A stretch of DNA of 43,730 nucleotides from contig CAZXAD010000001.1 in the NCBI GenBank assembly GCA_964638825.1, forward strand, positions 1 through 43,730. Reading direction: 5' to 3'. The notes beneath the pieces were generated by a model. That model was not told the DNA's origin. It saw only the letters and a program-made list of their open reading frames with translations, and made no database searches. This stretch comes from an uncultured Candidatus Saccharibacteria bacterium (GTDB lineage: Bacteria; Patescibacteriota; Saccharimonadia; QS-5-54-17). The translations under genes were made by a program, and so were the position numbers. Each line of letters opens with the position of its first letter. Position 1 is the stretch's first letter. Below are positions 8,775 to 42,876 of the stretch, piece by piece.

Positions 8775-9902
8775 TTAAAGCCGTTTCTTTTTACGGTGTT
8801 TGCGCAGTTCTTCCATTAGTTCCTTCTGTTTATTGGTCAATCGTTTCGGAATTGCCACGTTCACCGTTACCAAATGATCCCCGCGGGTATCCCCTCGTCC
8901 ATACGGCACACCGCTTCCCGCGATACGGAAAGTCTGTCCGTTCTGGGTTCCAGCCGGTATTTTCAGTTTCTTTTTCCCGTCTACCGTTTCAACTTCTATT
9001 TCGGTACCGAGTGCTGCATCGAACATATCGATCGTTTTCTCAGAAGTAATATCCTTGCCGCGACGGGTAAATTGTTTACTGGAACGTACCGATACATGGA
9101 CATACAGATCGCCTTTCCGCCCGCCTGATCCGCCAATGGGCGGCGCTTCGCCGCGTTCCTGTAAACGGATTGTAGCCCCATCATTGATTCCGGCAGGGAT
9201 TTTAACGTTTATCTGATGCCTGCTCCGTTTCGTTCCTTTGCCGCCGCATTCGCTGCATGCTTTTTCCGGAATCGAGCCGTGGCCATGGCAATCAGGACAG
9301 GTGGTAGCGTGTTGAATGGTGCCCAGCACAGTCCGCTGCGCCTGTATGACTTGTCCTTGGCCGCCACAGGTATCGCATGTCTTGGTACTGCTTCCCGGTT
9401 CTGCCATGGAACCTTCACACCGAGGGCACGTGTCTTCCAGGTTCAATGCGACCGTTTTTTCCGTACCGAAGACCGCTTCTTCGAAATCGATGGTTATTCT
9501 GGCTTCAACATCCCTGCCACGGCGGGTTTGTTGCCGGCGGCCACGTTGGGTGCCGCCTCCAAAAAAACTCCCGAAGATATCACCGAGATCCATGTCGCCC
9601 AAATCGAATTCAAATTGCTGGCCTCCGCCGAATCCACCGAACCCGAACGGATCAGCGCCCGCGCCGGCGCCGCCAGCACCTTGTGCCGACTGATACGCGT
9701 CATGCCCGAACCGGTCATAACTCTGGCGTTTCTGGGAATCGCTGAGCGTTTCGTAGGCTTCGCTGACCTCTTTGAACGTTTGTTCATCGCCGCCTTCTTT
9801 GTCCGGATGGTATTTGGCGGCTAATTTACGGTAGGCGCGCTTTATATCGTCCGCGGATGCATCTTTGGAAACTCCCAGAACTTCGTAATAGTCCTTTGCC
9901 AT
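8775..9902 (-). CDS. dnaJ: Molecular chaperone DnaJ (type I: J-domain, G/F region, four CxxCxGxG zinc motifs)
   Basis: DYYEVLGV...YHPD; G/F-rich linker; CPRCEG, CDTCGGQG, CPDCHGHG, CSECGGKG. Confidence 0.97.
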   Translation of the reverse strand: MAKDYYEVLGVSKDASADDIKRAYRKLAAKYHPDKEGGDEQTFKEVSEAYETLSDSQKRQSYDRFGHDAYQSAQGAGGAGAGADPFGFGGFGGGQQFEFDLGDMDLGDIFGSFFGGGTQRGRRQQTRRGRDVEARITIDFEEAVFGTEKTVALNLEDTCPRCEGSMAEPGSSTKTCDTCGGQGQVIQAQRTVLGTIQHATTCPDCHGHGSIPEKACSECGGKGTKRSRHQINVKIPAGINDGATIRLQERGEAPPIGGSGGRKGDLYVHVSVRSSKQFTRRGKDITSEKTIDMFDAALGTEIEVETVDGKKKLKIPAGTQNGQTFRIAGSGVPYGRGDTRGDHLVTVNVAIPKRLTNKQKELMEELRKHRKKKRL

Positions 9903-9947
9903 GGTTTACCTTGCTCTACCTATTTACGCCGGCCAACAGAGACCGCT

Positions 9948-11876
9948 TTATTTTTCATCGGTTTTGTTTTCCTCATCGTCGACCACTTCGCCTTCTTCTA
10001 CGTCGGATGGCTGCTCGGTTTCACCCTCGACTTCGGTTTCGGCCTTCTCCGCCTCTTCGGATGCCTCTTGTTGCACGTTTTCGTGCATTTTAGCACCGAT
10101 CGGCTGTATCTTGTCCAACAATTCCTGGGAAGCTTTTTCAAGGTCTTCTTTGCTCAGATCAGATTCAAGCTTTTCCTTGGCTTCCTTTACTGCTTCATCG
10201 AGCGTTTTTCCGTCTTCTTCTGAAAGTTGGTCTTTGTGGTCAGATTGCATCTTTTCGGCAGTGTAGATTGCCGTTTCAAGCTGGTTGCGAGCCTCGGCCT
10301 TTTCGCGTTTCTTCTTGTCTTCTTCGGAATGCGCTTCAGCGTCCTTGCGCATCTTTTCTACTTCTTCTTCTGAAAGGTTGCCGCTGTTTTCAATGGTAAT
10401 CGACTGCTCTTTTCCGGATGATTTGTCTTTGGCGCTCACGTTCAGAATGCCGTTCGCATCAATGTTAAAGGTGACTTCTACCTGGGGGACGCCGCGCGGA
10501 GCGGGAGGAATACCGTCAAGAATGAACCGCCCCAGCGATTTGTTATCGGCTGCCATTTCACGCTCACCCTGGAGAACATTGATCTCGACTGACGTCTGAT
10601 TATCGGCCGCGGTCGAGAACACTTGGCTTTTACTGGTCGGAACGGTGGTGTTGCGCTCGATCAATTTGGTCATGATGCCGCCTTCGGTCTCAATACCCAA
10701 TGACAAGGGAGTGACATCGAGCAAAAGCACGTCTTTGACATCTCCGCCGAGCACGCCCCCTTGGATAGCCGCACCCAGGGCTACTACCTCATCAGGATTA
10801 ACGCCCTTCAGCGGATCTTTGCCGAATATTTCCTTTACTTTCTCCTGGACTGCCGGCATGCGGGTCATTCCGCCCACCAAAATCACTTCGTTTACATCGT
10901 TCGCCTGGATGCCCGCGTCTTTCAAAGCGTCTTTGCAGGGTTTTTCGGTTTTGGCGATCAAATCGTTTACCAGCTGTTCCAATTTGGACCGGGTCAACTT
11001 GTATTCAAAATGCTTCGGTCCTTCAGTATCAGCGGTCAAGAACGGAAGATTGATATCGGTTTCTTTGGTGCTTGAGAGCTCCGTTTTGGCTTTTTCAGCC
11101 GCTTCTTTCAACCGCTGTACCGCAGCTTTATCTTCTGATATATCGATACCTTCCTGTTTTTTGAACTCCTCGATTAGGTGGTTCATGATGGTTAGGTCGA
11201 AATCTTCACCGCCCAGGTGCGTATCACCATGAGTGCTTTTCACCTCAAACACGCCGTCGCCAAGTTCCAGTATGGAAACATCGAACGTTCCCCCGCCAAG
11301 GTCGAATACGGCGATTTTCTCTTCTTCCTTTTTATCAAGGCCGTAGGCCAATGCGGCAGCTGTTGGCTCGTTGATAATCCGTTTTACTTCGAAGCCGGCG
11401 ATTTTGCCAGCATCTTTCGTGGCCTGGCGCTGGGAGTCGTCGAAATAGGCCGGCACTGTGATAACCGCTTCGTTTATCGTCTCGCCGACATATTCCTCGG
11501 CATCGGTTTTCAGTTTCTTAAGAACCATGGCTGAAATTTCTTCGGGGCTGTAATCCTTATCGCCCATGGTAACCTTTACGCCGTCATCGGCTTTATTGAT
11601 CGCATACGGCATCAGTTTAATGTCGCGCTGCACTTCTTCATCGTCGAACTTACGTCCGATTAAACGTTTGGCTCCATGGATAGTATTCTCCGAATTGACG
11701 ACTGCCTGACGTTTGGCCATTTGCCCTACGAGCCGTTCGCCGTTTTTATTTACGGCTACTACGCTCGGAGTAGTCCGGTTGCCTTCGGCGTTGGAAATAA
11801 CCGTGGCATTTCCGCCTTCCATGATTGCCATGGCTGAATTAGTTGTTCCTAGATCGATACCTAAAATTTTACCCAT
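9948..11876 (-). CDS. dnaK: Molecular chaperone DnaK (Hsp70)
   Basis: [30 protein letters not shown]; acidic C-terminal tail. The start ATG shares one base with the grpE stop (TAATG). Confidence 0.98.
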
Positions 11877-12484
11877 TATTCTTCCTCCTTATTCTCTTGT
11901 TCTTCTTTAGATTGCTCATTATTGTCCGTTGGCCGGGATTGCTCGGATGGATTACCTACCTTCACCATTGCCGGACGCACAACGGTATCATTCAATGTGT
12001 ATCCGGTACGCAATACTTCCGTAACAATCTCATCATTGCCATCACCCTCTTCGAACTCAACAGCCTCATGGAGTTGTGGATCAAACGGTTGGTGTAATGC
12101 ATCGATTCTCGCTACTCCCATGTCGTTCATTTTCTCCTGTGCCTGTTCATACACTTTTCCGACTCCTTGAGCCCACGGGTTACCGCGTAACTCTTCGGGT
12201 ACATGCGATAACGCGCGTTCCAAATCATCAAATAATGGGAGAAGCTGGGTGATGACTTCCGACCTCGCCCGGGAAAGGATTTGTTCCTTCTCCGATTCCA
12301 TCCGGCGTTGATAGTTCGCAAAATCAGACCGCTCCCGTTGCAGGTCATGAGTCAAATCTTCCACTTGCTGCTTTAGATCAGCCACTTTCTTCGTGTCGCG
12401 CTTACCCTTTGACTGTCCGGACCGCGGTTGCTTCTGTTCTTCCTCCGCTTGCTGCTGAGTCTTCTCGACGTCTTCCTCACTCAT
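11876..12484 (-). CDS. grpE: Nucleotide exchange factor GrpE
   Basis: [15 protein letters not shown]...[12 protein letters not shown]...FDPQLHEAV...[16 protein letters not shown]. Sits between hrcA and dnaK; 8-nt overlap with hrcA. Confidence 0.93.
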
Positions 12485-22522: not shown

Positions 22523-22599
22523 TGGTACCAGGGGTGGGATTCGAACCCACGACGCCGGGCTTATGAGTCCCGTGCTCTAACCAACTGAGCTACCCTGGC
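22523..22599 (-). tRNA. tRNA with CAU anticodon (elongator Met or Ile2/lysidine type), CCA encoded
   Basis: The reverse complement is GCCAGGG TAGCTCAGTTGGTTAGAGCAC ... CTCATAA ... GTGGGTTCGAATCCCAC CCCTGGT A CCA. The D-arm and T-arm are canonical; there is a G1-U72 wobble and an A31-G39 mismatch in the anticodon stem. Confidence 0.85.
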
Positions 22600-34641: not shown

Positions 34642-35085
34642 ATGAGTAAAATAGCAACAGTTCGGGGTGTCATAGAGAGTCAGGGAAAGTTTTTGTTAGT
34701 TAGGCAAAAGTTCGATTCAACGTTTTGGTGCTTGCCTGGCGGCGGCGTTGAAACCGGCGAAGATTTGTTTACCGCCCTAAAACGCGAAATGGTCGAGGAA
34801 ACCAATATCGAACCGGTTATTGGCAACTTATTATTCATCCAGCAAGTAAGGGTTGAGGGCGCCTACCATTTTCCTGAACTCCACTTCCACATTACTAATC
34901 CGCAAGATTACTTAAGTCACGATACCGCAAATAGTACTCACGGCGAAAAGGAAATAGAAGATATAGACTGGGTAGACCCCACCCAGGTAACTATCAAGCC
35001 AAAATTTCTCGCGGAAAGATTACCAGCAGTCGCACAACAAAACTTTGATATAAAAACAGAGATTTATCTTACAGAAGCTACGTAA
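34642..35085 (+). CDS. NUDIX hydrolase
   Basis: Intact Nudix box: LPGGGVETGEDLFTALKREMVEETNI. Confidence 0.85.
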   Translation: MSKIATVRGVIESQGKFLLVRQKFDSTFWCLPGGGVETGEDLFTALKREMVEETNIEPVIGNLLFIQQVRVEGAYHFPELHFHITNPQDYLSHDTANSTHGEKEIEDIDWVDPTQVTIKPKFLAERLPAVAQQNFDIKTEIYLTEAT

Positions 35086-35089
35086 ACCC

Positions 35090-35629
35090 ATGTCTGGTGC
35101 AGAAAAATACAGTTTCACTAACCATCTTCCCGAAAATATACCGGTTTCGGATACCGAATTGGTTTTAAGGCTTTTTGAGCCCGATGATGCCGAAACATTA
35201 CTGGAAATTGCCACGGAAGAGAACACCGCAAAGTATGTACCCTGGTCTAAGGCTATTAAGGACGTGGAAACTTCACAACAAATGATCGGTAGGTTTCATA
35301 ATCAGTGGCAACAAGGCCTATTCGCGCGTTACCTGGTCACGCGGCACGATGAAGCGTGCGGATATTTTGGTATCTGGCCTGCTGACGTGCCCGATATGTA
35401 CGAGATAGGGTTCGCTGTTTTACCTCGGCACCGCGGCAAGGGAATAGCCAAACAAGTTCTGGATACGGCAGAAGAGGTAGCGATGACAAACCTTGAAGCT
35501 GCCGGATTGGTCGCTCATATAGATGAGCCTAATGAAGCGAGCCAGCACACAATAGCAAAGCAAGGTTTTCACCCTACTGATAAGTTTAATGAGGAAGGCG
35601 AAAGACGATACGAAAAGCAGCTGCGCTAG
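35090..35629 (+). CDS. GNAT family N-acetyltransferase (RimJ/RimL-like)
   Basis: LRLFEPDDAE...; acetyl-CoA motif A-like LPRHRGKGIAKQVL; 4 nt downstream of the Nudix gene. Confidence 0.8.
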   Translation: MSGAEKYSFTNHLPENIPVSDTELVLRLFEPDDAETLLEIATEENTAKYVPWSKAIKDVETSQQMIGRFHNQWQQGLFARYLVTRHDEACGYFGIWPADVPDMYEIGFAVLPRHRGKGIAKQVLDTAEEVAMTNLEAAGLVAHIDEPNEASQHTIAKQGFHPTDKFNEEGERRYEKQLR

Positions 35630-35647: not shown

Positions 35648-36961
35648 TCAACTCTGGTATTTATAACCCCAAGGGTTCATGGCTCTTTTGAGCACACTTT
35701 TTAGTGACGGAGAGTCGTCCAGAACCTTTTTCCCGAGTTCAGGATTTGTTTTTTCAAGATCAGAAAGTAATTTAGCCGTGACTTTCACTTGCCCTCGCCG
35801 CTGTTTTTCAGGATCGTGCACGAGACCCCACTCCAGCTGTTCAACTAGTTCAAGAGCAAAAGCTTGCTTAGCTAAATCCATACCGTCACCATTCATATCA
35901 TGCTGTGATTCGGCGATTTCCAGCCATTTCTTAACCGTTTCAAGTTCTTGAGGATATTTTCTGTCATCAAGCGGTGTTTTCCAATAAGCCAGTTGCCCTA
36001 AAGATCCATCGTAGCCGAATTCTTCTCGAGGCATGAAATAGAACGTGAAGGCAGACTTGGCGAACAGGTAACTCTGATATAACGACCGCTCACTTTCGGG
36101 TATATCGGTAATAGTGGTAGCATTTTCCAGGATTTGCAGCACTCTCTCCATCCTTCCTCGCTGCTCATTATCATCAGAGTCTTGATATGAAGGACCGGGG
36201 TAATATTCCGGCCTGTTCAAGATAAAAAGTCCTTCAGATGCCTGAGAGACCGCTTCTTCAAGATCCGCACCTATATGTATACCCATGTTCGGGTTACGGG
36301 GGCCGACTAGATCTTCTATATTCACCCCTGAAGCATTTAAGTCCGCGCCTGACTCATGCAAAGCACGTACAGCATATTTCAAGATTTCACGTGAGTGAAT
36401 AATCGCACTGCTTTGCAGAACATCTTCTGCCTTGGATTCTTCTACCCCGAGCCTATTGGTAAAATACGCTTTCAGTCTGGCCCTTTCATGGATATTGTTA
36501 AACACCCTTCCCGGGTTGTTTCTTTCTATTGTTTTGAATGCTATCAAAGATTGCAACGAAGCCGGCAATTCTGTGAAAGTAGATAAGTCAGAAAGTTTTT
36601 CGCCGCCCTGTCTCCCAAACACATGGTCCATATCAGTCCTGAACTCCTCAGCGCCCTCCAAGAAAGCACTTTCTATTCTCCTCTTGTCAAAGTTATCAAT
36701 ATTGAGGTCAAAAATACTACAAAAGTTTTCAATTTTCATGGCCGGAAATCTTGTATATCCGAGTCCTAAATCCTTAGTAGGTTCTATACTGAATGTCCCC
36801 AGCGCACCACGTATCTGGTACCTAAGCCCGGGTTCCTCAATGAGCCGGTCCGCGATAGACTCTCTAAAATCTGGTGCTACTTCCGGCACAGCTAATGTGC
36901 TATCTAATGATATTGTGTCTATTTCTAATTGATCGTAATCGCTCTTGGGTGTTTCACTCAT
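35648..36961 (-). CDS. Hypothetical protein (437 aa), orphan
   Basis: Long ATG-started ORF with normal composition and no motif recognised. It lies directly downstream of the terminator that closes the GC-rich operon. Confidence 0.6.
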   Translation of the reverse strand: MSETPKSDYDQLEIDTISLDSTLAVPEVAPDFRESIADRLIEEPGLRYQIRGALGTFSIEPTKDLGLGYTRFPAMKIENFCSIFDLNIDNFDKRRIESAFLEGAEEFRTDMDHVFGRQGGEKLSDLSTFTELPASLQSLIAFKTIERNNPGRVFNNIHERARLKAYFTNRLGVEESKAEDVLQSSAIIHSREILKYAVRALHESGADLNASGVNIEDLVGPRNPNMGIHIGADLEEAVSQASEGLFILNRPEYYPGPSYQDSDDNEQRGRMERVLQILENATTITDIPESERSLYQSYLFAKSAFTFYFMPREEFGYDGSLGQLAYWKTPLDDRKYPQELETVKKWLEIAESQHDMNGDGMDLAKQAFALELVEQLEWGLVHDPEKQRRGQVKVTAKLLSDLEKTNPELGKKVLDDSPSLKSVLKRAMNPWGYKYQS

Positions 36962-37220: not shown

Positions 37221-37274
37221 AGAAAAAAGAAACGGCCCGCACCATTACCTCTTTACAGAGGAACAATGCGGGCC
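37221..37274 (-). terminator. Rho-independent terminator closing the GC-rich operon
   Basis: The minus strand has GGCCCGCA ... TGCGGGCC (8-bp GC stem with an inner CCTCT/AGAGG helix) followed by GTTTCTTTTTTC. It starts 10 nt after the purA-like stop. Confidence 0.8.
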
Positions 37275-37283
37275 AGGGCTGAC

Positions 37284-38687
37284 CTAGCAAGCGACAAGAG
37301 TTCGCTTGTCGGTCCGGACCGGACCGAAAGAAGTCAGCATGACGGGAGTTTGAAGCTCCTCAACCAAAAGGCCGAGAAGCTGGTTGATATCCGTCGCAGG
37401 TGCCGTTGTTTCGCTACCAGAAGATAGATCTACCCTCTGATAAAGCGGCTGACAGGCGAACAGGAGCTGAGTGAGACGTTCCTGGTGGTCGAGATTGTCC
37501 TTTCCGTCGGCGTGGATGAGCTGAATGGCTCCGCTGGCATCACGCGTCAGGTATGGTTCGAGGTCTGGATAGGTTGCTGGATGCGAGTACGCGGTGGCGA
37601 TCTGCCATTGAGCATGGTATTCCATGCGGTCGAGGCAAGTTACACCGAGCGCATCAATGCCACCACAGACCTCTATCGCATACCGCAGAGCTACCAGGTC
37701 GGTGTAGCCGACCCTGAACCCCAGTTGCCAGCGATTGTGACCGTTGTGCAGATCCGGGAGATCAGCCGAGAGCTCGGCATCCTCTGTCACGAACGGGCCG
37801 GGGCCGTGCCGGGTGGCATAGCCGCGGGTCAGACCCAGTCTGGTGACTTGGCCATCGAATCCATGTTCGTCGAGAATAGTCAAAGCGTTCTCGAAGGTAG
37901 TGGTACTCCAGGTAGTGTAGGGATGAAAACCGAACCACTCATCCAAAAGAACGCCCTGGGCGCCTTCGAAGATGACTTTATCGGCTCTCTCAAGCAGTAC
38001 GTCGAAGTACTGCTTGTCCACTATCTGGGCCCTTCGACTGAAATCCTGATACAGGGCCAGGCACTGGTCGACCATCAACGGGTCGTTCATCAGGGCTAGC
38101 TCCTGTTTCACCTGATCATTGTCGGGCAGTTGATCGATCAGTTCTCCTAGCTGTTCGCGCTTGTAGTCGCGCACCCGCTCCAGCTTCTGCTGTAGCAAAC
38201 GGGTACTGTAAAAGTCACTTACACGCACGGTTAAATCCGGAGTATTAATGGAATCGGCCATGGTTTCGCCGATCCCCTGACCACAGCTACCGTGTCTCCT
38301 ATCTCCTCTGGCTAATTCGCGTATACGGTTAGCCGACTGGTGCCAAGGAGTGATGACCTTGGCCATAGAGTCGACAGTCAATCTCTCCCAAGCATCGCCC
38401 ACTCCGACTTCACGCAGATGGCGCTCCTCACCATACAGGTTGAACGGATTGACTAACATGAAGCGCGAGAGATGGGTGCGCGCACCAGGTACGAAAGTGC
38501 CGCTGCCAAATTGGGCAAAGGTATGATGCCGACCGTCGGGAGTAGTAACGTTGTGAGCGGCCTGAGGGCCGCCGTTGAAGCGAACTACCAGAGCGGACTG
38601 TGCCTGGTTTGCCAGGTAATCGACAACCGACCCTTTACCGGCATCGCCATAGGTTAGATCGGCGACAATCACCGCTTCGCGCCTCAT
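37284..38687 (-). CDS. Divergent adenylosuccinate synthetase (PurA) family protein, 467 aa
   Basis: PurA-type motifs: GDAGKGS (vs GDEGKGK), GGPQAAH (vs GGHNAGH), GQGIGE (vs GRGIGP), FEGAQGVLLD (near identical), RHGPGPFVTE (vs RVGAGPFPTE), SFGPVR (vs STGPDR). The Asp-binding loop is not conserved. Confidence 0.8.
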   Translation of the reverse strand: MRREAVIVADLTYGDAGKGSVVDYLANQAQSALVVRFNGGPQAAHNVTTPDGRHHTFAQFGSGTFVPGARTHLSRFMLVNPFNLYGEERHLREVGVGDAWERLTVDSMAKVITPWHQSANRIRELARGDRRHGSCGQGIGETMADSINTPDLTVRVSDFYSTRLLQQKLERVRDYKREQLGELIDQLPDNDQVKQELALMNDPLMVDQCLALYQDFSRRAQIVDKQYFDVLLERADKVIFEGAQGVLLDEWFGFHPYTTWSTTTFENALTILDEHGFDGQVTRLGLTRGYATRHGPGPFVTEDAELSADLPDLHNGHNRWQLGFRVGYTDLVALRYAIEVCGGIDALGVTCLDRMEYHAQWQIATAYSHPATYPDLEPYLTRDASGAIQLIHADGKDNLDHQERLTQLLFACQPLYQRVDLSSGSETTAPATDINQLLGLLVEELQTPVMLTSFGPVRTDKRTLVAC

Positions 38688-38724
38688 GGGAAAACCTTTC
38701 TTTTTGCCGCAAGAGCGGCTGGTA

Positions 38725-38763
38725 CCCCCATGGACGGAGGAATCTTCATTCCGTCCATGGGGG
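38725..38763 (-). promoter_or_regulatory. Perfect 13-bp intercistronic stem-loop between the vWA and PurA-like genes
   Basis: cccccatggacgg (38725-38737) and ccgtccatggggg (38751-38763) are exact complements with a 13-nt loop. No T-run follows on the minus strand. Confidence 0.7.
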
Positions 38764-38773
38764 CGGATGCGTT

Positions 38774-39808
38774 CTACAGTCTCGGAGCTGGCGGATCATC
38801 AGACAAATCGGATAGCTGACCATCGCTGTCGGCAATCGCTACCGTACCTGCCTGCACTGTCGACAGAGCCTTGCCAGCAGCCTTAACGGCAGCCAGATCG
38901 GATCCGGTTTGTTGTAGATCGTCCAGCGTATCATCGAGGTCGACACCACCCTCAAACATACCGAGCGTGGCACCGATTACTTCGCAGACCGCCGATGGGT
39001 CGTCGAGCCGCAAGGCCCGCTCGCCTATCAGCTTGCGCCAGACCGGAAGCACTTCTTCGGCCTGGTAGGAACCCTGCTCCTGGAAAAGAAAGAAGACGTT
39101 GAAACGCTTCTCCAATTCCGCGAAGATCTGCTCGGTAGAGATGTCGGCTTCGAGCTGATCACCCACCAGAGCTTCCAGTGTGTGACCGGCATAGCCGAGA
39201 TAGGCACGCTTGACAGCATCGTAGGGCTTCTCGTCTCCGATGAAGAAGACGTAGCCCTTCTTGCTGAAGCGCTCGAAGGTCTCGAGATAGGTGTGGTAGG
39301 CCAAGAAGTACGCAGCCAGCTCGTAGGTCTCGTGCGTTTGGCCGCCACCATTACCTTCGAGATAGATAGCGGCCAACTGTTCGTCCATGCGGTTGTCCGA
39401 CTCGAACTGCCCCATCTGGAGCGGAACGCTGTCGGTGTGAGCATCGCCCACGGCACCGAAGAGGATCTGGGGGTCCTCGACGTAGCCCTTGCGCTGGAGT
39501 AGCCCGTGCAGTTGTGGCAGCTTGTCGTGGGCAGCCACAGCAGCAGTGTAGTTCGAGCCGGTCACATCCAGCACCACCGCGATGGCGGTCGGGTTGGAAT
39601 GATCGTCGGAGATCATGGCCTCCCGGATGTTCCGTCCGACATGCGGACCGTCCTGGTTGGCCCAGTTGGTATCAACCAGATCGTGCACCCGGGCGCTCTG
39701 ACGCCCGGCTCGGATCTGGTCGGTGTAGTCGAAGGTGCTTCTGCCAGCAGCGCGGTTCGCAGCTTGCCGCTGTTCGTATACGTCCGTCGTCCAACTTCCT
39801 CCACCCAT
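38774..39808 (-). CDS. von Willebrand factor A (vWA)-like protein with MIDAS-type motif, 344 aa
   Basis: AIAVVLDVTGS (D-x-T-x-S MIDAS variant), GGGQTHE (Thr) and VFFIGDEKP (Asp), in the order and spacing expected of a vWA Rossmann fold. ATG start preceded by GAAAGGAAA. Confidence 0.7.
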   Translation of the reverse strand: MGGGSWTTDVYEQRQAANRAAGRSTFDYTDQIRAGRQSARVHDLVDTNWANQDGPHVGRNIREAMISDDHSNPTAIAVVLDVTGSNYTAAVAAHDKLPQLHGLLQRKGYVEDPQILFGAVGDAHTDSVPLQMGQFESDNRMDEQLAAIYLEGNGGGQTHETYELAAYFLAYHTYLETFERFSKKGYVFFIGDEKPYDAVKRAYLGYAGHTLEALVGDQLEADISTEQIFAELEKRFNVFFLFQEQGSYQAEEVLPVWRKLIGERALRLDDPSAVCEVIGATLGMFEGGVDLDDTLDDLQQTGSDLAAVKAAGKALSTVQAGTVAIADSDGQLSDLSDDPPAPRL

Positions 39809-39841
39809 GGCAGTTTCCTTTCTCGTGTGTGTCTGGGCGCT

Positions 39842-40945
39842 TCAGGGCATCCTGAACTCTCTGAAGCGTCTGGGGTGGTATGGTGGTCCGAGCCGCTCAA
39901 GCAGCTCGTCGAACTCTCTGAGCAGACCCCAGGCATCCTGCGGACGGCGGCGCTGGTCTTCAATCAGCGTACCGCGCATGAATGCCCGTAAGCCCTTAGG
40001 TATATTGACCGGTAGCGTACCGTTAGTTGGATCACCTCCCAGTAGATAGACCATGCATTTAGCGGCCAGGTAGATATCGGTTGCTGGCGAGAGTGTCTGT
40101 TGATCCAGCACTTCGGACGGATACCAATCTCTATACCCTGGATCCACCAACTTGGCCGCCGGAATGGAGCCATCGTCCTCCGTATCGGCGCTGTAGCACC
40201 AATCGGTAAGAACCAGTCCGTGCATCTGCGGATGGATCATGACGTGATCGGGAAGAACGGCGCCGTGGATAACACCGTTCCAACTGGCATACCCTACGGC
40301 TACAAGCAGCCGCCGCCACATCCAAGCCATGTCGAGAGGATGGATTCCGTCCGGGTAGACTTTTCTTACTTCGCTTAGTGAGTAGAAACCCTCTAGAAAA
40401 ACAGTGACGTTCGCCCGGCGGCGGCTTCCTTCTTTCTGGTAGTCGAATGTATCGATCAGATCCGGTATGTATGGATGGAGCCTTTCGTCCGTTCCGCTAC
40501 CTCGCAGCCTCTTAAGAGCCCTGGCTTCCTGGGCGAGCAAGTCGTTATCATGCGGTGAAGCCGCGATCTTGACCATGCTCCCAACAGAGTTGCCGCTCTT
40601 GGGCGTGGTGGTGGCACGGTAGATATTCCCGATTGCGCCTTTGAACGCAGAACCGTCGATGCGATGTTGGCACCGCTTAGTCCGCAGCGTCACGAACGTA
40701 TGGCCGTAGCTGCCGCTATCCAACGCGGCTAAGGCCTCCTGATACAGCTTCGTCAGCCGCCCGAAAACCTGCGAGGCGATACCCTCATCATCACAGGCGC
40801 ATAAGTCCGGGTGGACTACACGTGAGAGACGCCGATAAGTCTGCTTAACGTGCCGGGAGGGTGAGCTTTCAGCATGCCCGAACACATCAAGATAGCTGTT
40901 GGCATCAAGTATATTTCGAGCCACGTGATCGAACTCTGTACTCAC
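39842..40945 (-). CDS. J-domain protein fused to a protein-kinase-like (probably pseudokinase) domain, 367 aa
   Basis: J-domain: SYLDVFG...KQTYRRLSRVVHPD, with HPD encoded at 40805-40813. Kinase-like: Gly-loop FKGAIGNIY, VKIA Lys, AQEARAL Glu, catalytic-loop position IHGAVLPDHVMI (Asp replaced by Ala, Asn by His), DFG position TDWC, subdomain IX ATDIYLAAKCMVYLLGG. GTG start 5 nt after AGGAG. Confidence 0.7.
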   Translation of the reverse strand: MSTEFDHVARNILDANSYLDVFGHAESSPSRHVKQTYRRLSRVVHPDLCACDDEGIASQVFGRLTKLYQEALAALDSGSYGHTFVTLRTKRCQHRIDGSAFKGAIGNIYRATTTPKSGNSVGSMVKIAASPHDNDLLAQEARALKRLRGSGTDERLHPYIPDLIDTFDYQKEGSRRRANVTVFLEGFYSLSEVRKVYPDGIHPLDMAWMWRRLLVAVGYASWNGVIHGAVLPDHVMIHPQMHGLVLTDWCYSADTEDDGSIPAAKLVDPGYRDWYPSEVLDQQTLSPATDIYLAAKCMVYLLGGDPTNGTLPVNIPKGLRAFMRGTLIEDQRRRPQDAWGLLREFDELLERLGPPYHPRRFREFRMP

Positions 40946-41009
40946 CTCTTCTCCTGTTCTTAGACTGTCAATGTTCTAAGTGTAGTTTTTACACTAACAC
41001 TCTACTCAT

Positions 41010-41039
41010 AGAGTACCTGACTACTTTGTGTATTGTCAA
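41010..41039 (-). promoter_or_regulatory. Candidate sigma-70-like promoter for the GC-rich operon (TTGACA-N18-TACTCT)
   Basis: Read on the minus strand in the 104-nt gap between the NrtR-like gene and the J-domain gene. A 6-bp hairpin AGTGTA/TACACT follows in the putative 5' UTR. By-eye call only. Confidence 0.35.
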
Positions 41040-41049
41040 CACTTAGATG

Positions 41050-41718
41050 CTAGGCGAAACGCTCTAACTCTTTAACACGGCTGTCCTTAAATCTATAAAG
41101 CAAAGCTGGACGATGCGGGCCAGTCTTCTTCTCCTTTGTTTCCTCCAGCACCCCCAGCGACAGGAACTTCTTACGGAAGTTACGCTTATCCAACTTTTGG
41201 TTGTATACGGCTTCGTACAAACTTTGCAATTCCTGAAGAGTAAACTTCTCCGGGAGAAGCGCTTGGGCAACAGTAGTATAGTTAAGCTTGTTTTTTAGAC
41301 GATCCATAGCATATTCGATAATCGAATCATGATCAAAGGCCATCTCCGGCAGTTGACGGACATCGTAGAACTGTGGGTTCTCGACCCGGCCTCCTGCCTC
41401 CGGACTGACATGGTGGTTTAGTACCATGTAGCTTACCGAGATAGCATGCCCTCGCGGATCTCTAGCCACTGTGTCAAAAGTATAAAGCTGTTCCGCATAC
41501 GCCAAAGATTCTACATCCACTCCCGTCTTCTTCTGCATAATCCGCGCTGCTGCTTCCCAGGTAGTTTCCCCTTGAGCATTGTAACCACCAGGTAGGGCCC
41601 GCTGCCCACGGAAGGGTTCATTCTGCCGCTGGATTAGCAGCACTTCAAGCGTCTCATCCTTATATCTGAAGTAGACTATGTCCACGGTTAGTGTGGGCGG
41701 TTGATAAGTATTTGTCAT
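41050..41718 (-). CDS. NrtR-type regulator: degenerate Nudix domain plus C-terminal winged-helix
   Basis: Nudix-fold N-terminus with box GGYNAQGETTWEAAARIMQKKTGV (the REx2EE glutamates are replaced by I and KK). The C-terminus FDHDSIIEYAMDRLKNKLNYTTVAQALLPEKFTLQELQSLYEAVYNQKLDKRNFRKK is typical of NrtR. The track start at 41757 is TTG; the ATG at 41718 is preferred. Confidence 0.8.
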   Translation of the reverse strand: MTNTYQPPTLTVDIVYFRYKDETLEVLLIQRQNEPFRGQRALPGGYNAQGETTWEAAARIMQKKTGVDVESLAYAEQLYTFDTVARDPRGHAISVSYMVLNHHVSPEAGGRVENPQFYDVRQLPEMAFDHDSIIEYAMDRLKNKLNYTTVAQALLPEKFTLQELQSLYEAVYNQKLDKRNFRKKFLSLGVLEETKEKKTGPHRPALLYRFKDSRVKELERFA

Positions 41719-41719
41719 A

Positions 41720-41740
41720 TTATTGTACAATATACAATAA
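41720..41740. promoter_or_regulatory. Palindrome TTATTGTA-N5-TACAATAA abutting the NrtR-like start codon (candidate autoregulatory operator)
   Basis: 8-bp perfect arms read directly; located 2 nt upstream of the ATG at 41718; no Shine-Dalgarno between them, so the mRNA may be leaderless. Confidence 0.5.
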
Positions 41741-41807
41741 GCTTTGTTAGACGTCAAAAATCAGGCTTGAATCCACCTACCCATCGATACGATCAAGAAT
41801 TAAAAAA

Positions 41808-41840
41808 AGCGGGGGCAGAATAGTCAGCAAGCTGACCTCC
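41808..41840 (-). repeat. Degenerate duplicate of the 3' half of tRNA-fMet (att-like remnant)
   Basis: agcgggggcag (41808-41818) is identical to 41988-41998 inside the tRNA. gacctcc (41834-41840) matches 42012-42018 in the same order and orientation. The sequence between them has diverged. Confidence 0.6.
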
Positions 41841-41940
41841 CTCGCTCCTCGGCAAGCAAAAATGCCAGCACTTTGTTTGCCTGCGGGGCTGCGTCCACCG
41901 AACCCAAGGGTTCTCATCCTGCCACCATTATCAAGAAGAT

Positions 41941-41967
41941 GAAATAAAACAACCCCTCAAAGAGGGG
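41941..41967 (-). terminator. Rho-independent terminator after tRNA-fMet
   Basis: The minus strand has CCCCTC TTT GAGGGG followed by TTGTTTTATTTC. An outer 12-bp inverted repeat (aagatgaaataa / ttatttcatctt) extends the stem. Confidence 0.75.
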
Positions 41968-41983
41968 CTGACTTATTTCATCT

Positions 41984-42058
41984 TGGTAGCGGGGGCAGGA
42001 TTCGAACCTGCGACCTCCGGGTTATGAGCCCGACGAGCTGCCACTGCTCCACCCCGCG
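41984..42058 (-). tRNA. Initiator tRNA-fMet (CAU), CCA encoded
   Basis: The reverse complement is CGCGGGG TGGAGCAGTGGCAGCTCGT CGGG CTCATAA CCCG ... GCAGGTTCGAATCCTGC CCCCGCT A CCA. It has an unpaired 1-72 position (C-U) and three G-C pairs closing the anticodon stem, both initiator hallmarks. Confidence 0.92.
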
Positions 42059-42800: not shown

Positions 42801-42876
42801 GGGGCTGTAGCTCAGTGGTCAGAGCAGTCGGCTCATAACCGATTGGCCGGTGGTTCGAACCCACCCAGCCCCACCA
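42801..42876 (+). tRNA. tRNA with CAU anticodon (Ile2/lysidine type or elongator Met), CCA encoded
   Basis: GGGGCTG TAGCTCAGTGGTCAGAGCA GTCGG CTCATAA CCGAT TGGCC GGTGGTTCGAACCCACC CAGCCCC A CCA; full cloverleaf. The D-arm and variable region resemble my recollection of E. coli ileX, but identity cannot be fixed by eye. Confidence 0.88.

Follow-up and report, generated by a model that had tools for sequence, protein, structure and literature searches.

The window, a 43,730-nucleotide stretch of DNA from an uncultured Candidatus Saccharibacteria bacterium, carries three co-directional minus-strand genes, here called A (39842..40945; 367 aa from a GTG start), B (38774..39808; 344 aa) and C (37284..38687; 467 aa). 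They are separated by gaps of 33 and 86 nt, and SD-like purine tracts (AGGAG, AAGGA and GAAAGG) lie 5' of the three starts. The B-C spacer holds an intercistronic hairpin on the same strand, a perfect 14-bp inverted repeat read from the sequence (38725..38763), and 3' of gene C stands an intrinsic terminator (37222..37275, minus strand) composed of a 19-bp hairpin and then GUUUCUUUUUUC; at a dG of -32.1 kcal/mol (z -5.3), this hairpin and U-run were equalled in stability by none of 200 shuffles. A preliminary description had read the genes as one transcription unit with strong ribosome-binding sites and a clean terminator, and all of its coordinates and spacings were borne out. Its further claim of a dedicated promoter held in part: a putative element, TTGACA-N18-TACTCT, can be read from the sequence at 41010..41039 of the minus strand and has a perfect -35, but its -10 matches at only three of six positions and it is absent from the list given by a consensus promoter scan.

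The operon is not self-contained, as had been supposed, since a conserved regulator gene and operators belong with the triad. Upstream, on the same strand, lies a gene for an NrtR-family regulator (41050..41718; 222 aa from the ATG at 41718), in which a Nudix-like sensor domain is joined to the NrtR winged-helix DNA-binding domain (Pfam NUDIX, 2.6e-13; NrtR_WHD, 2.6e-26). The Nudix box is degenerate, with RIMQKK replacing REUxEE, and the protein matches NCBIfam NtrR at 1.8e-46 but scores 158.6 against an equivalog cut-off of 400. A promoter-like element, TTGACG-17-TATATT (41729..41757, minus strand), was listed by the consensus scan, and its function as the nrtR promoter is inferred from that match (10 of 12 positions). 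Its -10 is overlapped by an operator-like palindrome with a TGT-N7-ACA core, ATTGTATATTGTACAAT (41722..41738), which is predicted to be a site of nrtR autoregulation. Two further NrtR-type palindromes precede gene A: putative site 1, AGTGTTGACAATACACA (41027..41043), departs by one mismatch from AGTGT-N7-ACACT and covers the -35 TTGACA, and putative site 2, AGTGTAAAAACTACACT (40979..40995), is an exact copy that falls just 3' of the -10 and 50 nt 5' of the gene A GTG. The preliminary description mentioned neither the adjacent NrtR-family regulator, nor operators shared with NAD-salvage genes, nor phage and plasmid copies.

Across the window as a whole, the degenerate TGT-N7-ACA core occurs no more often than expected (5 found, 8.3 expected), and the case for the operators rests on position and cross-locus conservation. 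The exact AGTGT-N7-ACACT motif occurs at 26 sites in 958 kb of loci, all of them in regulatory positions: 18 precede A, five fall at the start of nrtR, and the other three lie at pncA-like or nadE/nadD genes. Upstream of gene A the 17-mer pattern reaches distant phyla, at 19 non-Actinomycete loci besides the window. Anaerolineae loci carry an exact site at the nrtR start codon, Ktedonobacterales loci without an adjacent nrtR still carry exact sites, and Actinomycete and Rhodococcus operons have their own palindromes at the equivalent position. In Saccharibacteria other than that of the window, at loci L008 and L012, the 17-mer pattern also lies upstream of nadE/nadD and pncA-like genes. The motif is consistent with the GT-N7-AC core published for characterised NrtR, which is released from DNA by ADP-ribose in vitro (PMC2330246).

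The triad is a genuine, conserved unit whose range takes in Actinomycetes, tiny Saccharibacteria and large phages. Its co-occurrence outside this genome, which the preliminary description had named as a check, proved to be wide: of the 85 loci fetched, 77 keep an identical A-B-C order, with at least five phyla represented, which is more than chance would produce. Clustering of all open reading frames at these loci returned C (82), B (80), A (73) and the NrtR-like gene (54) as the only conserved families, with no PP2C or other conserved partner. The NrtR-like gene adjoins the triad in 54 of 82 loci, about two thirds, in four different arrangements: upstream on the same strand (the window, Actinomycetes, Anaerolineae), downstream and convergent (L001, L008, L010, L012), divergent (L030), or last in the operon (Rhodococcus pR1CP1). 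Relatives of gene C are present in at least 567 species-representative genomes, and gene B has 2,009 representatives at 50% identity. B and C, with or without A, are also carried by some 200 cluster-C mycobacteriophages, by Rhizobium and Vibrio jumbo phages, and by Rhodococcus megaplasmids; in phages the enzyme core is present without the regulator. The GC content of the triad exceeds that of its flanks by 4-13 points in all low-GC lineages, which suggests lateral spread and not a core metabolic function. No published description of the module was found, and no catalogue or paper searched gives it a name.

Profile searches of the three proteins, proposed as a check, gave a strong match for C, weak ones for A and none in Pfam for B; structural models of A and B, and residue conservation, upheld the domain assignments. 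Gene A encodes an HPD J-domain fused to a Hanks-type kinase fold without the catalytic Asp, that is, a pseudokinase. Its Pfam matches (Pkinase, E 1e-4; DnaJ, E 2e-3) are both under the gathering score, but its AF2 model (pLDDT 94.6) matches Hanks kinases (PknB, TM 0.77) and places HPD 45-47 in the loop joining helices 29-44 and 54-76. Among 30 homologues at least 90% have the HPD, and Lys126, Glu140 and Asp248 of the ATP site persist. In place of HRD the family has a nearly invariant H-G-A (A229 in at least 90%), and the catalytic Asp is thus missing throughout. The window encodes dnaK in an ordinary grpE-dnaK-dnaJ operon 26 kb from the triad, which shows that a DnaK partner is present and permits no further inference.

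Gene B encodes a vWA-fold protein with a MIDAS-like site, as had been proposed: its AF2 model (pLDDT 84.5, pTM 0.86) matches integrin I-domains and vWFA domains with probability 1.0, and D81-x-T83-x-S85 is invariant, accompanied by G-D192-E. The N-terminus, M-G-x-G-x-[W/Y/F], is universal and begins at residue 1 in nearly all of 202 homologues and of 150 representatives, with G2 in 202 of 202, G4 in 195 and an aromatic residue at position 6 in all 202, phage and B+C-only variants included. Residues 1-10 are modelled with lower confidence (pLDDT 64), which suggests flexibility. The C-terminal tail is disordered and ends in R-L; R-[L/I] closes the protein at 59 of 73 loci that have A and at none of the four A-less loci with room for A.

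Gene C is predicted to encode a divergent, GTP-dependent ligase of the PurA family. Within the family (n=201), G12, D13, K16, G17, H41, R272, D311, D333, S414 and G416 are kept in 100% and Q224 in 99%, so that all catalytic and GTP residues are intact. The contacts to L-aspartate and to the IMP 5'-phosphate are gone, R131, R143, R303 and R304 among them, and new residues have taken their place: N38Q, T128S, S240W, V273H and a W-Q pair for T300/T301 are invariant, and T129C and R305F reach 97% and 94%. An intact catalytic and GTP set with altered substrate contacts points to an active ligase with a different substrate. That C is ordinary housekeeping purA, a chance neighbour of two unrelated genes, has a negligible probability, although it matches PF00709 strongly (E 1.5e-62) and public records label its homologues 'adenylosuccinate synthetase'. 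It falls far under every NCBIfam purA equivalog cut-off (168 versus 402 bits), the L-Asp determinants T300, T301, R303, V273 and R131 are replaced family-wide, and the gene is strictly coupled to B; this sequence evidence effectively refutes the idea. Actinomycetes, which carry gene C relatives, also have canonical purA. The nearest homologues of gene C form instead a distinct subfamily, in agreement with the replaced aspartate loop noted beforehand, and it is reasonable to suppose that the enzyme has a modified purine nucleotide as its product or substrate.

It is not obvious why a metabolic role should call for a vWA protein and a J-domain pseudokinase, domains met more often in systems of sensing, scaffolding or conflict. 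The module might be an anti-phage or conflict system, as was first proposed, in which a DnaK-gated vWA/pseudokinase pair senses an infection cue and C makes or destroys a purine nucleotide that serves as signal or toxic effector; until infection-induced NAD+ cleavage freed ADP-ribose, NrtR would hold the system off, and phage copies would be decoys or counter-measures. We consider this unlikely. Conflict systems often contain vWA and kinase-fold modules, the triad is scattered patchily over the phyla, its GC is atypical, copies lie on megaplasmids and in phages, and AbiE or RT+UvrD genes lie near some loci. The kinase region of A resembles those of defence proteins (PADLOC MkoA, 8.5e-12; mad6; PD-T4-6), and conflict operons with vWA chaperones, repressed by Nudix-HTH proteins and induced by ADPr, have been predicted (PMC9503650). 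PADLOC, however, has no model matching B or C, and among 120 flanking proteins from 30 loci no defence family recurred and no Pfam family appeared more than twice. The proteins evolve slowly and keep highly conserved motifs instead of diversifying, no effector (nuclease, NADase or pore) is recognisable, the window locus sits among core chromosomal genes, and fixation of the module in all C1 mycobacteriophages fits a pro-viral function better. The likeness first drawn to TerY-P gained no positive support, that system comprising vWA, kinase and PP2C where the present one has a vWA protein, a dead kinase and no PP2C.

Two other readings concern the substrate of C. C could restore nucleotide pools, either by aminating IMP, ITP or a deamino-dinucleotide with ammonia, bypassing PurB, or by rejoining ADP-ribose and nicotinamide, as a salvage route in cells and as phage counter-defence against NADase or adenosine-deaminase immunity. 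In its favour, the module has nadV and a nadM-like gene as neighbours, and B-C of the Rhizobium phage lie next to NARP2-type genes. The operator is common to nadE, nadD-like and pncA-like genes, the module occurs in large lytic phages of three unrelated groups, the NAD+ reconstitution pathways NARP1-3 show that phages have such a need, bulky aromatics in the Asp pocket are consistent with an ammonia or nicotinamide nucleophile, and ADP-ribose might be a substrate besides being the inducer. Yet the cluster-C mycobacteriophage copies have no NAD genes beside them in the 8-kb region examined. The conservation of D13, H41 and Q224 favours chemistry at purine O6 over activation of the ribose anomeric carbon, no ammonia-generating domain is evident, and the obligatory vWA partner is left without explanation; we judge this reading rather improbable. 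Tagging of protein, which we think more doubtful still, would have the Gly2 alpha-amine of B, exposed by Met removal, replace L-aspartate, so that C attaches a purine nucleotide to B as an N6-linked, AMP-like adduct of about +330 Da; A would read the tag in its intact ATP pocket and pass the complex to DnaK. The universal, low-confidence start of B, the exchange of the Arg-rich carboxylate pocket of C for W/H/W/Q/F, which would suit a glycine-rich peptide, the inseparability of B and C, the retention by A of Lys, Glu and DFG-Asp without a catalytic base, and the way in which the R-[L/I] ending of B tracks A would all agree. The case is entirely circumstantial, the B N-terminus may be a mere structural or interface element, and we know of no precedent for protein modification by the PurA family.

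We propose, at about even confidence, that nrtR and A-B-C form a four-gene module of the ADP-ribose-responsive NrtR regulon of NAD metabolism. Several neighbourhoods speak for it: pncA-like, ADP-ribosylglycohydrolase, SIR2, A-B-C, nrtR, nadE and nadD-like genes at L008; pncA-like, His-phosphatase, A-B-C, nrtR, nadE and nadD-like at L012; nadV, then a Nudix gene like nadM, nrtR and A-B-C at L030; and, in the Rhizobium phage, B-C about 4 kb from PRTase-like and NMNAT/Nudix genes. Against it, such neighbours are documented in Saccharibacteria and one phage group only, and the flanks of most Actinomycete loci are not NAD genes. By analogy with the characterised NrtR family, cleavage of NAD+ would let ADP-ribose accumulate, NrtR would leave its operators, and A, B and C would be made; AraR, a relative of NrtR, senses arabinose instead of ADP-ribose. 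Gene C, judged by its residues, has all the adenylosuccinate-synthetase machinery by which GTP activates the 6-oxo group of a purine through phosphorylation. It would join a 6-oxopurine nucleotide, which need not be IMP itself, to a nitrogen nucleophile; this would be small, neutral or aromatic and not dicarboxylic, with ammonia, nicotinamide and a peptide N-terminus as candidates. Because B and C are never separated, even in phages, B is the obligate partner of C, and its invariant Gly-rich N-terminus may enable it to act as a presenter that depends on Mg2+, or else as the substrate. A would have an accessory part as an adaptor, binding nucleotide but transferring no phosphate, and its HPD J-domain would recruit DnaK to the complex. 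In related Saccharibacteria the triad would be induced together with NAD-salvage genes, and the unregulated enzyme core of phages presumably carries out the same chemistry during infection.

The module formed by genes A, B and C is real, strongly conserved and mis-annotated in public records, where B is 'hypothetical' and C is mis-named 'adenylosuccinate synthetase'. Judged from sequence, it combines a new PurA subfamily with a vWA protein as its obligate partner and, usually, a J-domain pseudokinase; it is predicted to be under NrtR-type control and is shared by large phages. In the window, the three genes form an operon on the minus strand, with gene A at 39842-40945 (367 aa, GTG start), gene B at 38774-39808 (344 aa) and gene C at 37284-38687 (467 aa). 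All are co-directional, the spacers measure 33 and 86 nt, and Shine-Dalgarno-like purine-rich tracts precede all three starts. A terminator composed of a 19-bp hairpin and then GUUUCUUUUUUC lies 3' of C (-32.1 kcal/mol, z = -5.3 by folding), and is absent from the consensus scan solely because the scanner accepts loops of up to 8 nt. The promoter proposed for the operon in the preliminary description, TTGACA-N18-TACTCT, is present at 41010-41039, but its -10 element has only three of six consensus matches and the consensus scan did not return it. The GC content of the triad is 0.571, as compared to 0.475 for the regulator gene nrtR just upstream and 0.44 for the surrounding 9 kb of the window. 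The triad is 4-13 points richer in GC than its flanks in every low-GC lineage (Saccharibacteria, other Patescibacteria and the Gammaproteobacterial MAG), while the composition of the regulator resembles that of the host.

The remainder of the window, whose Saccharibacteria affiliation is deduced from its nearest homologues, is chromosomal core, including grpE-dnaK-dnaJ (8775-12484), LepA, MurJ, FtsH, PBP1 and DivIC. Within the B-C spacer, a perfect 14-bp inverted repeat, CCCCCATGGACGGA-(11 nt)-TCCGTCCATGGGGG, occupies 38725-38763 (minus strand) with no U-run behind it, and may be an intercistronic stabiliser or processing hairpin. Three tRNA-Met (CAT) genes are found at 22523-22599, 41984-42058 and 42801-42876, and the nrtR promoter begins about 230 nt downstream of the second. 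Integration at this tRNA-Met was considered and rejected, as a repeat search with the tRNA 3' end returned the tRNA alone and gave no evidence of an att site. The spacer between this tRNA and nrtR (41760-41983) is rich in GC and hairpins, one of them terminator-like (41950-41970), and matches no Rfam family; an Rfam scan of the window returned four tRNAs only, with no riboswitch or sRNA near the module. Directly downstream of the triad, a 437-aa ORF (35648-36961, minus strand) has no match in Pfam, NCBIfam, PADLOC or PHROGs and lies beside the triad in no other locus examined. On the plus strand, 2 kb downstream of the triad, are genes for a Nudix hydrolase with an apparently intact box (34642-35085) and a GNAT acetyltransferase (35090-35629); a motif search of the window placed no NrtR-type operator near this pair.

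Gene C encodes a member of the PurA family by both sequence and fold (PF00709, E = 1.5e-62), sharing with E. coli PurA (PDB 1ADE and others) the P-loop, the catalytic Asp13 and His41, and the guanine-specific Asp333. It differs in being always encoded beside a vWA protein and in a new invariant set of residues, Q38, S128-C129, W240, H273, a W-Q pair and F305. To define these changes, the protein was aligned to E. coli PurA, whose numbering is used here, and 201 family members were then tabulated. G12, D13, K16, G17, H41, R272, D311, D333, S414 and G416 are conserved in all 201, and Q224 in 99%; Thr239, the G12-D13-x-G-K16-G P-loop and the S414-x-G416-P motif are also kept. The substitutions are nearly as uniform across the same 201 sequences: N38Q, T128S, S240W and V273H in 100%, T129C in 97% and R305F in 94%, with the W-Q pair (100%) standing where PurA has T300 and T301. 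R131, R143, R303 and R304 are lost from the family, the R131 position reading M or Q and R303 being deleted. The positions affected are those of the L-aspartate site (T300, T301, R303, R304, V273 and R131) and of the contacts to the IMP 5'-phosphate (N38, T129 and R143), and the most divergent phage enzymes carry the H273, Gln and Arg-loss signature as well. Retention of the P-loop, His41, Gln224, Thr239, Asp333 and S414-x-G416-P implies that a purine 6-oxo group is activated by GTP-dependent phosphorylation. Because this catalytic set is kept while the L-aspartate determinants are replaced, C is predicted to be an active GTP-dependent ligase for which the canonical use of aspartate is impossible. 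The match to C in PHROGs, phrog_1211, is labelled '2-aminooxy adenylosuccinate synthetase' and mixes repurposed PurA paralogues of phages.

The partner protein B is matched by no model of Pfam (VWA models included), NCBIfam or PADLOC; its sole profile match is phrog_2971 of PHROGs, function unknown. Since a search of the B family profile against PDB sequences also found nothing, the vWA fold is visible by fold comparison only. The AlphaFold2 model of B (pLDDT 84.5, pTM 0.86) was matched by Foldseek, at probability 1.0, to integrin alpha-I and beta-I, SpaC and collagen VI vWFA domains. D81-x-T83-x-S85, a Thr-for-Ser variant of the MIDAS motif, and G191-D192-E193 are invariant, which predicts a MIDAS-type site, and T161 is nearly so. 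The N-terminus, M-G-x-G-x-[W/Y/F], is universal in a set of 202 sequences that takes in phage and two-gene variants (G2 in 202, G4 in 195 and an aromatic residue at position 6 in 202). Clustering at 50% identity leaves 2,009 representatives of the family, of which 811 have E <= 1e-30; with few exceptions they span 310-360 aa and match from residue 1, and no fusion recurs. When co-variation between B and C was considered as a test of contact, the positions proved almost invariant. The C-terminal tail of B is disordered and ends in R-[L/I] in 170 of the 202 sequences. This terminal motif (residues 343-344 in the window) occurs in 59 of 73 A-bearing loci and is absent from all four loci, from Myxococcota, that have room for A but do not carry it; it may be a docking motif for A.

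Gene A gave weak, sub-threshold Pfam matches to Pkinase and DnaJ, the latter (PF00226) at 18.8 bits against a gathering score of 27.8, and a precomputed PF00226 match is recorded for 7 of 120 A homologues among the matches listed. An AlphaFold2 model built on a 30-homologue alignment (pLDDT 94.6) matches Hanks kinases with a PknB-normalised TM-score of 0.75-0.77. In this model, residues 3-76 form a helical bundle in which H45-P46-D47 sits in the loop joining helices 29-44 and 54-76, placed as in the helix II/III loop of a four-helix J-domain. Among the 30 homologues, HPD is kept in at least 90%, as are Lys126 and the DFG-type Asp248 of the ATP site, with Glu140 invariant; HRD is replaced by H227-G228-A229 (H and G invariant, A in at least 90%), and the catalytic Asp is absent. 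On account of the HPD loop, the retained ATP-site residues and the change of HRD to HGA, we read A as a J-domain fused to a predicted nucleotide-binding pseudokinase, and DnaK is itself encoded within the window. The preliminary description had proposed a J-domain joined to a kinase fold without its catalytic Asp, a MIDAS-bearing vWA protein and a PurA-like enzyme with a replaced aspartate loop. All three assignments hold at the level of model and sequence, by the fold, HPD loop and HGA motif of A, by the vWA fold of B with a MIDAS motif whose distal Thr and Asp are both present, and by replacement of the aspartate determinants across the 201 aligned members of the C family.

C has relatives in at least 567 species-representative genomes. 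The matches listed include Saccharibacteria, WWE3, other Patescibacteria, Ktedonobacterales, Anaerolineae, Chloroflexia, many Actinomycetes, Myxococcota/Deltaproteobacteria and one Gammaproteobacterial MAG. A, B and C keep the same order and strand in 77 of 85 fetched loci. Clustering of all ORFs from 82 non-redundant loci recovered C in 82, B in 80, A in 73 and an NrtR-like gene in 54, and no further conserved partner gene; B and C are an obligate pair, and the Myxococcota loci carry these two alone. About 200 cluster-C mycobacteriophages (Bixzunavirus) encode A-B-(small ORF)-C with no NrtR-like gene, and in phage Mangeria A corresponds to gp261, annotated 'serine/threonine kinase', B to the hypothetical gp262, and C to gp264, annotated 'PurA-like adenylosuccinate synthetase'. 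The kinase and PurA-like phams are present in all C1 members and unique to them, according to a genome announcement (PMC9476963). B and C without A are found in 10 Rhizobium jumbo phages and 6 Vibrio phages, and RHph_TM30 has a PRTase-like gene and an NMNAT/Nudix gene some 4 kb away from the pair. The module is also carried by 21 plasmids, of which 11 are Rhodococcus megaplasmids, including R. jostii RHA1 pRHL1; on R. opacus pR1CP1, A and B are followed by C, recorded as 'adenylosuccinate synthetase', and then by a 'NUDIX hydrolase' of 215 aa whose Nudix box is degenerate.

Some mycobacteriophage B genes (P0221, and cluster-C records such as MK359358.1 151401-153107) contain an intein-like insertion of about 254 aa, with a Cys at each junction, exactly before the invariant F-I-G-D-E strand, and tblastn splits them into two segments separated by about 760 nt. 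In a neighbour-joining tree of B, built without bootstrap, Mangeria gp262 (L086) falls inside the clade of the window and other Saccharibacteria (L001, L006, L008) and not with Actinomycetes, which hints at gene exchange between actinophages and Saccharibacteria. The latter are epibionts of Actinobacteria.

The regulator gene nrtR (41050-41718, minus strand) adjoins A upstream, and its start agrees with the called gene. Its product matches the NrtR winged helix (PF21906, 2.6e-26) and NUDIX (PF00293, 2.6e-13) models but does not reach the NCBIfam equivalog cut-off. Inspected by eye, the Nudix box reads RIMQKK in place of REUxEE, and the catalytic glutamates are missing. NrtR operators have been described as palindromes of about 21 bp with a GT-N7-AC core, from which NrtR is freed by ADP-ribose (Rodionov et al. 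2008; PMC2330246). An NrtR-like gene is adjacent to the module in 54 of the 82 loci, and distant lineages have in common a palindrome, AGTGT-N7-ACACT, upstream of A. The 958 kb of locus DNA contain 26 exact copies, every one of them at a regulatory position. Eighteen are upstream of A, in loci that include the Gammaproteobacterial MAG and Ktedonobacterales with no nrtR beside the module; in Anaerolineae, 5 lie at the start codon of nrtR; and the Saccharibacteria loci L008 and L012 have 3 in pncA-like or nadE<>nadD-like intergenic regions. An exact putative operator of the window (40979-40995) is located 50 nt before the GTG start of A, downstream of the -10 element; a second, with one mismatch (41027-41043), overlaps the -35 of the A-B-C promoter; and a TGT-N7-ACA variant (41722-41738) overlaps the -10 of the nrtR promoter, TTGACG-17-TATATT, which is a good consensus match. 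No further site was found within the 43.7-kb window. The degenerate core is not enriched there (5 observed against 8.3 expected), and the case for these operators therefore rests on position and cross-locus conservation. In Rhodococcus, A is preceded at about 30 nt by a 21-bp palindrome that is perfect and contains the GT-N7-AC core. Neither the adjacent nrtR and its operators nor the phage and plasmid copies of the module figured in the preliminary description.

Actinomycete loci arranged as nrtR-A-B-C present a different palindrome, (G/C)TTATGTT(C/G)TTCTCATA(A/G)C (TATG-N7-CATA), which precedes nrtR by about 60-140 nt in at least 15 of 41 loci (for example L026, L033, L040, L054, L063 and L085). 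This is a predicted lineage-specific operator, distinct from the AGTGT-N7-ACACT of Chloroflexota and Patescibacteria.

Neighbourhoods in Saccharibacteria have an NAD and ADP-ribose theme. Locus L008 reads pncA-like isochorismatase, operators, ADP-ribosylglycohydrolase, SIR2, A-B-C, nrtR, nadE, operator and nadD-like gene, and L012 reads pncA-like gene, operators, histidine phosphatase, A-B-C, nrtR, nadE, operator and nadD-like gene. In a third Saccharibacteria locus, L030, the order is nadV (NAMPT), a nadM-like Nudix fusion, nrtR, operators and A-B-C. Outside Saccharibacteria the flanks are heterogeneous: among 120 flanking proteins from 30 loci, no Pfam family occurs more than twice, and neither Pfam nor PADLOC revealed a recurrent defence family or defence-island signature. 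Each PADLOC match in these flanks derives from one protein, and the models matched are kinase models throughout, consistent with a single generic kinase. An RNB-family ribonuclease adjoins the module in a Ktedonobacterales locus (L002, 3340-5595) and on Rhodococcus pR1CP1 (L089, 10195-12042); these lineages are unrelated, and the adjacency may therefore be chance.

The module resembles NrtR regulons in its Nudix-like sensor joined to a winged helix, its degenerate Nudix box and its GT-N7-AC palindromes over promoters, and L008 and L012 carry the same operator before nadE, nadD-like and pncA-like genes. The nrtX and nrtY genes, unexplained targets in such regulons, presumably encode a Band-7 protein and a PpnK-like protein (SEED annotations), not A-B-C. 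The difference is that none of A, B and C is a known NAD enzyme or appears among the targets given in PMC2330246. The closest conceptual relative is a class of Nudix-HTH/WYL-regulated operons centred on an ADP-ribosylglycohydrolase and predicted to act against viral ADP-ribosylation (Iyer, Burroughs, Anantharaman and Aravind 2022; PMC9503650). These have NrtR-like Nudix-HTH repression thought to sense ADP-ribose and an optional vWA 'peptide-binding chaperone' (PMC9503650), and L008 places an ADP-ribosylglycohydrolase under the operator of the module, while a phosphatase is present in L012. However, neither the window nor the conserved module contains the defining ADP-ribosylglycohydrolase, which among the loci examined occurs in L008 only, and a PurA-like enzyme, a DnaJ domain and a pseudokinase all go unmentioned in that account (PMC9503650). 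No description of the A-B-C gene set was found in the literature on PurA-like proteins, vWA, J-domains, NrtR, Bxz1 or phage NAD+ depletion.

As a general model, ADP-ribose or a related nucleotide would derepress the operon; C would use GTP to activate a 6-oxopurine nucleotide and join it to a nitrogen nucleophile other than aspartate; B would present or supply that nucleophile, or bridge the substrate through its MIDAS metal; and A would recruit DnaK. By its conserved residues, C is predicted to keep a PurA scaffold competent in catalysis while its pocket for the second substrate is rebuilt, and A is a predicted pseudokinase in which the J-domain motif is intact. We regard the chances of the general model as evenly balanced. 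That C is instead a housekeeping purA is effectively excluded. It has the fold and the catalytic residues of PurA, but identity with canonical PurA (adenylosuccinate synthetase, EC 6.3.4.4) was rejected because C scores less than half of every NCBIfam purA equivalog cut-off (168.3 bits against 402 for NF002223; 147.5 against 395.55 for TIGR00184) and its L-aspartate residues are replaced. PurZ, the phage succino-amino-deoxyadenylate synthase of 2-aminoadenine (Z-genome) synthesis, keeps L-aspartate as substrate and works with DatZ/MazZ. Like PurZ, C is a phage-borne PurA paralogue apparently repurposed for non-canonical nucleotide chemistry; unlike it, C has no Asp site and is partnered by a vWA protein and a J-domain pseudokinase. 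The phage regions examined carry no annotated gene for a DatZ/MazZ-type dATP/dGTP hydrolase, and the conserved neighbours there are the vWA gene and, where A is present, the kinase-like gene; across the 82 loci, conservation is limited to A, B, C and the NrtR-like gene. Identity with PurZ was rejected on this lack of association and on a score of 51.5 bits against the cut-off of 300 for the NCBIfam PurZ model (NF038379).

The preliminary description favoured a defence function and likened the operon to TerY-P, reportedly a set of vWA TerY, Ser/Thr kinase and PP2C phosphatase from the 2020 screen of Gao et al. The likeness lies in a three-gene unit with vWA and kinase-fold proteins. It does not extend to the PP2C, absent from the 82 loci, nor to the kinase, which lacks the HRD Asp and carries a J-domain, nor to the third gene, a PurA-family ligase. 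PADLOC (v2.0.0), suggested there as a check, gave no match for B or C and generic kinase-domain matches only for A, and the flanks hold no recurrent defence genes. With no PP2C, a dead kinase and no defence HMM match, the module is not TerY-P, and a defence role of the kind first proposed is unlikely. Direct amination, or restoration of NAD+ or adenylate by the module, is quite unlikely. In its favour, the NARP1 (Adps and Namat), NARP2 (Nampt and Nmnat) and NARP3 (PnuC and NadR-like) pathways of phage NAD+ reconstitution are likewise small NAD+/ADP-ribose gene sets of large lytic phages, and B-C lies near NARP2-type genes in Rhizobium phages; they are built from wholly other protein families, and NAD+ synthesis by B-C is a hypothesis. 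Tagging of the N-terminal glycine of B by C, to which the universal G2 would lend itself, is decidedly improbable. B and C, with or without A, might constitute an unrecognised GTP-driven nucleotide-ligation pathway tied to NAD+/ADP-ribose turnover and common to bacteria and large lytic phages. It would either rebuild the adenylate/NAD+ pool, adding a fourth type to the counter-measures of phages against NAD-depleting immunity, or attach a purine nucleotide through the PurA-like enzyme to the N-terminal glycine of the vWA partner, to be read by the nucleotide-binding pseudokinase and DnaK. We put this forward as a tentative proposal, more doubtful than probable.

The family is large and deeply conserved, with members in at least 567 species-representative genomes, 2,009 vWA-partner clusters at 50% identity and copies in every subcluster-C1 mycobacteriophage, and the module is testable in tractable organisms, namely M. 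smegmatis with cluster-C phages and Rhodococcus jostii RHA1 with pRHL1. A PurA scaffold in which aspartate is swapped for another nucleophile would be a new case in enzymology beside PurZ. If this reading of the module is right, 'purA' is a mistaken name for many annotated genes of Actinomycetes, Chloroflexota, Patescibacteria and phages, the NrtR/ADP-ribose regulon would govern a nucleotide-ligase activity missing from every NAD pathway map, and the presence of that activity in large phages would make it a candidate player in the NAD-centred arms race between phages and their hosts.
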